The notes beneath the pieces are model-generated. The model worked only from the letters and a program-made list of their open reading frames with translations. It was not told the origin of the DNA and did no database searches. Shown piece by piece: positions 36,009 through 36,478 of a stretch of 64,000 nucleotides of DNA (position 1 is the stretch's first letter; every line of letters begins with the position of its first letter). Both the position numbers and the translations under genes were made by a program. This DNA is from Patescibacteria group bacterium. GTDB lineage: Bacteria > Patescibacteriota > Patescibacteriia > Patescibacteriales > JBAZCA01. The stretch is taken from positions 10,772 through 74,771 of the forward strand of contig JBAZUF010000003.1 in the NCBI GenBank assembly GCA_041661505.1. The letters are read 5' to 3'.

Positions 36009-36010
36009 CT

Positions 36011-36041
36011 GAAAAAGAAAAACCCCCTGACGGACAGAGGG
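36011..36041 (-). terminator. Rho-independent terminator oriented for the minus-strand gene inside the atp operon
   Basis: The minus-strand RNA reads CCCUCUG-UCCGU-CAGGGGG followed by UUUUUCUUUUU. On the plus strand the same stem has no downstream U-tract. Confidence 0.65.
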
Positions 36042-36125
36042 CTTATAAAGTGGTAAATCACGGGCGATGCTTTGGCGAATTTTACGCCATGGCACGAATC
36101 GCGGGGGCACTGGCTGGACTCGGCG

Positions 36126-36383
36126 TCATCTCTCCGAGGGAATTACTTCTTTGTCTTCGGGGACGCCAACAAACCAACCCAGGCAATGGATTGCATTAAA
36201 GGAGTCGTACGAAAATCCATCGGCGCCCAGGGAAGCTGCCTCTATGAAAGCCTCACATTCCGAAAGCTTAACCACCGGTTCGGGAAATTTAGTGCAGTAC
36301 TCTCCTATCGCCGCACTTTTTTCCGAAAGGTAAAATCTTCCGCCGGGCTTGATCTTACTAAAGGGCGTTTTTGAAATCTCCAT
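36126..36383 (-). CDS. Hypothetical 85-aa protein encoded antisense between atpG and atpD
   Basis: The ATG at 36383 is preceded by a near-perfect SD (aaaggaggtg) with 8-nt spacing, and the gene has its own terminator at 36011-36041. Product: MEISKTPFSKIKPGGRFYLSEK...LGWFVGVPEDKEVIPSER. No family confidently recognised. Confidence 0.55.
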   Translation of the reverse strand: MEISKTPFSKIKPGGRFYLSEKSAAIGEYCTKFPEPVVKLSECEAFIEAASLGADGFSYDSFNAIHCLGWFVGVPEDKEVIPSER

Positions 36384-36478
36384 TATCTTCACCTCCTTTC
36401 TGTGATGTAATAAAGAACATTAGGCTAGTAAGCTTATAATATTTTATATAAAATGTAAATATAGATGACTTAAAAAAT

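Follow-up and report, generated by a model that had tools for sequence, protein, structure and literature searches.

The window analysed here, a 64,000-nt (64-kb) stretch of an uncultured Patescibacteria genome assembled from a metagenome, carries the genes of an ATP synthase on its plus strand in the order atpB-E-F-H-A-G-D-C, as read from the ORF list. The junctions measure 26, 113, 34, 19 and 1 nt up to atpG and 76 nt between atpD and atpC, but a spacer of 470 nt separates atpG from atpD. The earlier note on this DNA had singled out this gap in an otherwise tight operon, and the measurements confirm it, with all other junctions between 1 and 113 nt. The spacer contains a minus-strand gene of 85 codons that separates the co-directional plus-strand blocks atpBEFHAG and atpDC, and the layout is alike in the related locus L085. 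The start codons of atpD and of the small ORF lie 95 nt apart. In the whole window, 50 of the 52 large ORFs are located on the plus strand. The insert had also been described, by eye, as richer in G+C than its flanks, which the counts contradict: the G+C content is 0.481 in the ORF and 0.447 in the spacer, compared with 0.479 in atpG and 0.496 in atpD. The features of the junction, together with the occupants of atp junctions in relatives, are listed in Table 1.

Table 1. Features of the atpG-atpD junction in the window and inserts at atp junctions of related genomes.
Feature	Position or size	Strand	Basis or remark
atpG (F1 gamma, 326 aa)	35028-36008	+	ORF list; PF00231 annotated on identical contig
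Intrinsic terminator of small gene	36010-36044	-	Folding, scan, identity with L085
3′ untranslated region of small gene	36045-36125 (about 80 nt)	-	68 % identity to L085
Small ORF (85 aa from ATG)	36126-36383	-	Orphan family, three members
SD AAAGGAGGTG (36399->36390) plus 6-nt spacer to ATG	36384-36399	-	Sequence; motif count in window
Candidate small-gene promoter	36431-36459	-	-35 TTTACA 36459->36454, 17 nt, -10 TAAGCT 36436->36431; by eye
TATAAT	36435-36440	+	Proposed in the earlier note as atpD -10; overlaps minus-strand -10-like hexamers
atpD (F1 beta, 459 aa)	36479-37858	+	Divergent neighbour of small gene
L006 insert ORF	103 aa	-	
L009 insert ORF	93 aa	-	Membrane
L011 insert ORF	about 55 aa	-	
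L017 GIY-YIG protein	5078-5377	+	PF01541, E 2.7e-17; sole sense-strand occupant of atpG-atpD
L020 insert ORF	67 aa	-	
L021 insert ORF	133 aa	-	
L022 insert ORF	about 97-127 aa	-	
L025, L031, L027 insert ORF		-	One common membrane-protein family
L052 mini-cassette	4997-5101	-	SD AAAGGAGGTGAAGAATATG, 19-aa hydrophobic ORF MLDAIILVIMFAVWWRLIQ, hairpin + U7
Occupants of other junctions (L008, L016, L021)	137-aa protein, 170-aa GNAT-like, 156-aa NUDIX-like	sense	Likeness by eye

A conserved antisense gene with its own signals

The protein encoded by the small ORF is identical to NCBI WCW77_03735, annotated by PGAP as "hypothetical protein" on a 247-kb ENA contig. We searched for homologues using a word-indexed search over 5.8 billion clusters, an exhaustive phmmer search over 1.84 billion representatives and a profile search. 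Two were found, P0002 (85 aa, 71 % identity) and P0004 (80 aa, 44 %), and no others among these clustered and representative proteins; a metagenome scan for the family returned the contig of P0004 only. P0002, on L001, is encoded antisense to and divergent from atpD, on a contig that stops short of atpG, and P0004, on L085, is an antisense ORF between atpD and atpG. An in-frame GTG three codons upstream of the ATG falls within the Shine-Dalgarno sequence (SD), and the ATG is the start in both homologues.

The Nei-Gojobori dN/dS of the ORF lies between 0.22 and 0.27. The 255-nt ungapped alignment of the window with L001 gives pS 0.58, pN 0.21 and an omega of 0.22, and the remaining pairs among the three family members give 0.25-0.27. 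The length, start, SD and stop are all kept with respect to L001. When the six frames over the ORF were compared in the window and L001, the minus-strand ORF frame alone was open throughout in both; on the plus strand, the shadow frame with which it has third codon positions in common contains 1 and 3 stops and displays a higher omega. Indels within the ORF are multiples of three (6-nt gaps), while the 3′ region has indels of 1 and 2 nt and is hence noncoding. In the family alignment, the N-terminal 41 and the C-terminal 24 residues are conserved and residues 42-61 are variable. Two plus-strand ORFs, 36067-36333 (88 aa) and 36072-36374 (100 aa), were considered as the true gene and rejected, because the frame sharing third positions is interrupted by stops in both the window and L001 and its omega is higher. 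Taken together, the comparison indicates that the minus-strand ORF is a genuine and conserved gene. Conservation of the peptide was among the checks that the earlier note had set for its own proposal, and with homologues at the same antisense site and purifying selection acting on them, the proposal passes it.

The SD of the small gene, AAAGGAGGTG, stands 6 nt from the ATG, or 8 nt if measured from the GGAGG core, which is the spacing originally reported. The motif AAGGAGGTG occurs a single time in the 64 kb, ahead of this ORF, and the strength claimed for the signal is borne out. The SD is kept in L001 and L085 as GGAAGGAGGTGAAAATCCATG. No SD-like motif precedes 46 of the 52 large ORFs (at least 110 aa) of the window, a rate that matches the background, and all eight atp genes are without one. 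Only about three other genes are SD-led: 15020-16024 (lipoprotein-like), 38570-39121 (containing a Big_2 domain) and 54514-55962. The similarity of the SD regions of the window and L052, GAAAGGAGGTGAAGA, was rejected as a sign of homology, since the shared stretch is complementary to the entire 3′ tail of the 16S rRNA.

At the other end of the gene, a 10-bp stem (36044->36020) with a 5-nt loop and 5 G-C pairs is directly followed by the T-run TTTTTCTTTTT at 36019->36010. The T-run ends 1-2 nt, and the stem 11 nt, from the atpG stop codon. The minus-strand RNA forms a hairpin of -14.3 kcal/mol (z -3.1) and continues into the U-run UUUUUCUUUUU. The hairpin of the plus strand reaches only -7.0 kcal/mol (z +0.16), with two G-U pairs turned into mismatches, and has no U-run behind it. 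The weak fold and the missing U-run on that strand make the terminator one-way, and the two hallmarks of an intrinsic terminator, a G+C-rich hairpin and an immediate U-run, are found on the minus strand only, just as had been suggested for a terminator placed before atpG. The scan recovered 12 terminator-like sites in the window, this one included, against 0-5 in shuffled sequences, and called no plus-strand site within 36009-36478. The hairpin is 100 % identical in L085. With a SD, a protein-coding ORF and a strand-specific terminator all identified, the cassette is the self-contained antisense unit that it had been taken for.

The 3′ untranslated region, which lies between the stop codon and the terminator, is moderately conserved in L001 and L085 despite the frame-breaking indels. 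RNAalifold proposes a possible stem-loop with two compensatory pairs from just two sequences. No Rfam family reached the gathering score in the 64-kb window, the 3′UTR included, and the terminator gave sub-threshold noise only. Over a short stretch, the 3′ end of atpG is repeated directly but imperfectly at 35982-36000 and 36062-36080 (GGGCGAATGCTTTGG and GGGCGATGCTTTGG), on either side of the terminator. We considered this repeat as a duplication of the atpG end and treat it as chance, since its score of 23 falls within the range of the shuffles (mean 16.9, sd 2.1, max 25) and it has no conserved counterpart in L085.

The 85-aa protein is acidic (pI 4.9; GRAVY -0.11) and has no hydrophobic segment, and its family displays a single invariant Cys. 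An hmmscan against Pfam-A returned no family at E ≤ 10, searches of NCBIfam, PHROGs and PADLOC gave no match, and the best match from the PDB sequences (E 0.67) was unrelated. No nuclease, integrase or transposase domain was found in the protein, and tblastn against phages and a search of viral contigs recovered no relatives. The AlphaFold2 model, built on a 3-sequence alignment, is poor (pLDDT 57.6); with it, Foldseek returned nothing from the PDB at E ≤ 0.001, and a model of this quality is too poor to exclude a fold. The earlier note could name no family, in which it was right, and saw a loose YjbR-like resemblance, for which we obtained neither PF04237 nor any other Pfam match at E ≤ 10 and, with the poor model, no fold match. 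The apparent similarity to P0003, a 2000-aa repeat protein (E 4.5e-11), was rejected: one 29-bit segment had been counted eight times over identical repeats, the match lies within the variable central part of the family, and it is absent for P0004. Judging from these searches, the protein belongs to a lineage-restricted orphan family of three members.

The atpG-atpD junction in related genomes

We recovered 46 Patescibacteria loci using AtpG as the query and measured the atpG-atpD spacing for 44 of them. In a neighbour-joining tree of AtpG and AtpD, the spacers measure 6-16 nt in the basal clade and 26-46 nt in many further lineages. The basal position of the tight spacers means that the tight junction is ancestral and that the cassette is an insert. 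The comparison of relatives called for in the earlier note hence comes out in favour of an insertion, the ancestral spacing being 6-46 nt among the 44. The sister genomes of the window are L005, with a gap of 46 nt and no insert, and L052, with 185 nt.

Gaps larger than 300 nt separate atpG and atpD in 10 of the 44 relatives. Across the same 44 genomes, such gaps were found once each at atpH-atpA, atpA-atpG and atpD-atpC and never at the other three junctions. The ten loci (Table 1) have inserts of 344-1005 nt, and these comprise at least nine mutually unrelated small genes. Most of the insert ORFs have a SD, and in seven of the ten loci (L009, L011, L020, L021, L025, L027, L031) a minus-only terminator-like site lies near atpG, with no plus-strand terminator-like site in any of them. 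Apart from the family shared by L025, L027 and L031, most of these ORFs are recognised by their SD and terminator features and not by conservation. In L052, the closest genome relative, the design of the window's cassette recurs in miniature, with a perfect SD, a 19-aa hydrophobic ORF and a hairpin plus U7, all antisense between atpG and atpD; the product resembles a type I toxin or a membrane peptide of small size.

The orientation of the occupants differs between junctions. Elsewhere in the operon, the three large inserts (L008, L016, L021) are all sense-oriented, which gives a ratio of antisense to sense among independent insert types of 9:1 at atpG-atpD versus 0:3 elsewhere (Fisher p about 0.014, calculated by hand). 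These counts indicate that the atpG-atpD junction is a recurrent landing site for small genes in this clade. The small gene alone is a lineage-specific hypothetical protein that PGAP had already annotated. The main new result is that unrelated small genes have entered the same junction of an essential core operon again and again, almost always in antisense and with one-way terminators that spare the operon, in tiny genomes nearly devoid of SDs.

The three loci that share the 85-aa family display a mosaic structure. The window and L085 agree at 91-92 % of positions in the flanks (third codon positions 82-84 %, dS 0.25-0.34), at 57 % in the ORF (third positions 43 %, dS about 1.6) and at 46 % in the divergent intergenic region, with the terminator hairpin identical. 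Between the window and L001, dS is alike in the ORF (1.13) and in atpD overall (1.33); the first ~550 nt of atpD (36479-37010) are 84-93 % identical and the remainder 70-81 %. The simplest reading of this pattern is that homologous recombination in the conserved atp flanks may shuffle divergent alleles of the cassette. The locus also provides a clear case of purifying selection on an orphan gene with alleles that differ from one another much more than their flanks do.

Transcription and possible roles of the cassette

The candidate promoter of the small gene (Table 1) has an equivalent at the aligned position in L001, TTGACA-17-TAAATT, which is better than that of the window. The window's own copy was not called by the consensus scan and is considered weak for this reason. 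To our knowledge, the sigma-factor preferences of Patescibacteria have not been characterised.

The reading that we favour, albeit only slightly above even, is that the gap holds a self-contained antisense orphan gene at a recurrent site, in an arrangement resembling a noncontiguous operon in which atp transcription reads through. The small gene would be driven by the sigma-70-type candidate promoter beside the atpD start. A perfect SD, in a genome that hardly uses SDs, precedes the 85-codon ORF, about 80 nt of 3′UTR would follow, and the minus-only terminator would halt antisense transcription just short of atpG. Transcription of atp would continue through the spacer into atpDC; this seems the most likely course, as no sense-strand terminator is present and relatives with spacers of 6-46 nt must co-transcribe atpG and atpD. 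The mRNA of the small gene (about 36425->36010) would then be complementary to the atp read-through RNA over roughly 400 nt of spacer, and the two RNAs would act against each other through head-on interference of transcription and cleavage of duplex RNA. Such antagonism would spare the coding sequences of atpG and atpD, as the predicted transcript of the small gene covers the spacer only. Long untranslated stretches of mRNA are prone to Rho-dependent termination, and read-through across 470 untranslated nt exposed to Rho is therefore not certain.

This last consideration also speaks for a true split of the operon, as the earlier note had read it, in which the cassette interrupts atp and atpDC is transcribed from its own promoter in the 95-nt divergent region. 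We regard this as possible but doubtful. The boundary between the gamma and beta genes is the natural break of the atp operons of cyanobacteria and chloroplasts, and the benefit of a promoter brought beside atpD could explain why the inserts are antisense. The divergent region is AT-rich (about 34 % G+C), and its TATAAT, where the earlier note had placed an atpDC promoter, overlaps the minus-strand -10-like hexamers TATTAT (36441->36436) and TAAGCT (36436->36431) in a symmetric geometry as in bidirectional promoters (PMC10268837). However, that promoter found no backing in our analysis. The hexamer, which is located at 36435-36440 rather than at the 36432-36439 first given for it, has no -35 partner, no plus-strand promoter was called by the scan in the spacer, and the motif is TATAAC in L001 and absent in L085. 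The spacers of 6-46 nt in relatives leave no room for a promoter, which makes co-transcription ancestral, and the design of the terminator lets sense transcription pass.

Beyond the favoured reading of an antisense gene within a read-through operon, the junction may be seen as a landing pad or nursery, in which small antisense genes, each with a strong SD and a one-way terminator, are captured or arise time after time and are expressed reciprocally with the ATP synthase by way of a noncontiguous operon; at least some of their products, including the 85-aa family, would act on the ATP synthase or the energy state once atp transcription falls. This broader idea seems to us unlikely. More specifically, the 85-aa protein could be a regulator, inhibitor or assembly factor of the ATP synthase, encoded in antisense so as to be made when atp transcription is low. 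All three members of the family are found at this locus only, the geometry would yield reciprocal expression, and small inhibitors of the ATP synthase (AtpTheta, the zeta subunit and IF1) exist in other lineages. However, the occupants in relatives are unrelated to each other and range from soluble and membrane proteins to a GIY-YIG nuclease and a peptide of only 19 aa, and L005, a sister genome, does without any insert; on account of these two points such a role is very unlikely. Moreover, the protein has no Pfam or NCBIfam similarity to ATP synthase families, and the strict synteny may merely reflect the close kinship of the three genomes. Nothing in our analysis links the 85-aa protein to the ATP synthase.

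We also weighed a selfish or mobile insertion that targets the conserved atpG-atpD junction, such as a passenger of the homing-endonuclease type, a toxin-antitoxin module or the remnant of a phage, and consider it highly improbable. The GIY-YIG gene of L017 in the same junction, the toxin-like hydrophobic peptide of L052 and the mosaic flanks would fit such an origin, but the protein is acidic and non-hydrophobic with no nuclease or defence domain, the flanking direct and inverted repeats are not significant (best score 23, within the range of the shuffles given above), and neither relatives on phage or viral contigs nor a second copy in the window were found. The interior is moreover more diverged than the flanks, the opposite of what is expected from a recently mobile element. 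Finally, one might suppose that the ORF is no gene and stays open by chance in a widened spacer, or mirrors a plus-strand feature. This idea could draw on the small family without family or fold assignment, the low AlphaFold confidence and an antisense frame sharing third codon positions that is mostly open, but it is scarcely tenable and has largely been refuted already by the excess of pS over pN against L001, the retained length, start, SD and stop, the stops and higher omega of the shadow frame, and indels that come in threes inside the ORF and not outside it.

Comparison with known systems

In cyanobacteria and chloroplasts, the atp genes are split into the operons atpIHGFDAC and atpBE. 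There, as here, the break has the gamma gene on one side and the beta-epsilon pair on the other; unlike there, the two halves in the window are adjacent and co-oriented around a 470-nt cassette, and close relatives retain a tight junction. Small inhibitors or accessory proteins of the ATP synthase include AtpTheta, the zeta subunit, IF1 and AtpI. They share with our gene the small size of the product and a coding site at or near the atp genes, but the 85-aa protein shows no similarity to them in Pfam, NCBIfam or the PDB sequences, is encoded in antisense, and is replaced by unrelated occupants at the same site in relatives. The window protein also differs from type I toxins in not being hydrophobic (GRAVY -0.11), while the 19-aa ORF of L052 would share that feature.

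Bidirectional promoters contain symmetric -10 elements with the reciprocal bases -11A and -7T (Warman et al. 2021, described in PMC10268837). The TATAATA at 36435-36441 likewise reads as TATAAT and TATTAT on the opposite strands, but here this is a pure sequence resemblance in an AT-rich stretch that is not conserved in the homologous loci. In the excludons of Listeria and other bacteria, overlapping antisense transcription makes expression mutually exclusive, by way of interference and RNase III cleavage (PMC7154746, PMC12288877). The neighbouring, oppositely oriented genes and the predicted antisense overlap are similar in our case. The overlap would, however, consist of the RNA of the operon spacer and the whole mRNA of the small gene, and no long UTR would run over the coding sequence of a neighbour.

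The type of the noncontiguous operons is reportedly menE-menC-MW1733-ytkD of Staphylococcus aureus, said to have been described by Saenz-Lahoya and colleagues in 2019. Co-transcription across a gene on the opposite strand is the defining criterion of these operons; the RNA of the operon overlaps with the antisense mRNA embedded in it, each repressing the other, and in the published atlas the counter-transcribed gene is often a short peptide gene (PMC11034616). According to the same authors, noncontiguous operons are not computationally predictable and transcript data are needed (PMC11034616). As in these operons, co-directional genes are parted here by one small gene on the opposite strand, and the antisense mRNA would overlap the read-through RNA over its full length, with mutual repression as the expected outcome. 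The differences are that co-transcription is a prediction here, that the operon is atp and the host an uncultured Patescibacterium, and that the occupant varies among relatives. If the read-through is true, a member of the Candidate Phyla Radiation would have its ATP synthase genes in a noncontiguous operon, and the inserts of its relatives would provide natural replicates for studying in what way an operon puts up with, or profits from, an antisense gene inside it. The repeated filling of the junction with a bias in orientation, combined with one-way terminators, is in this sense a candidate new example of a known arrangement.
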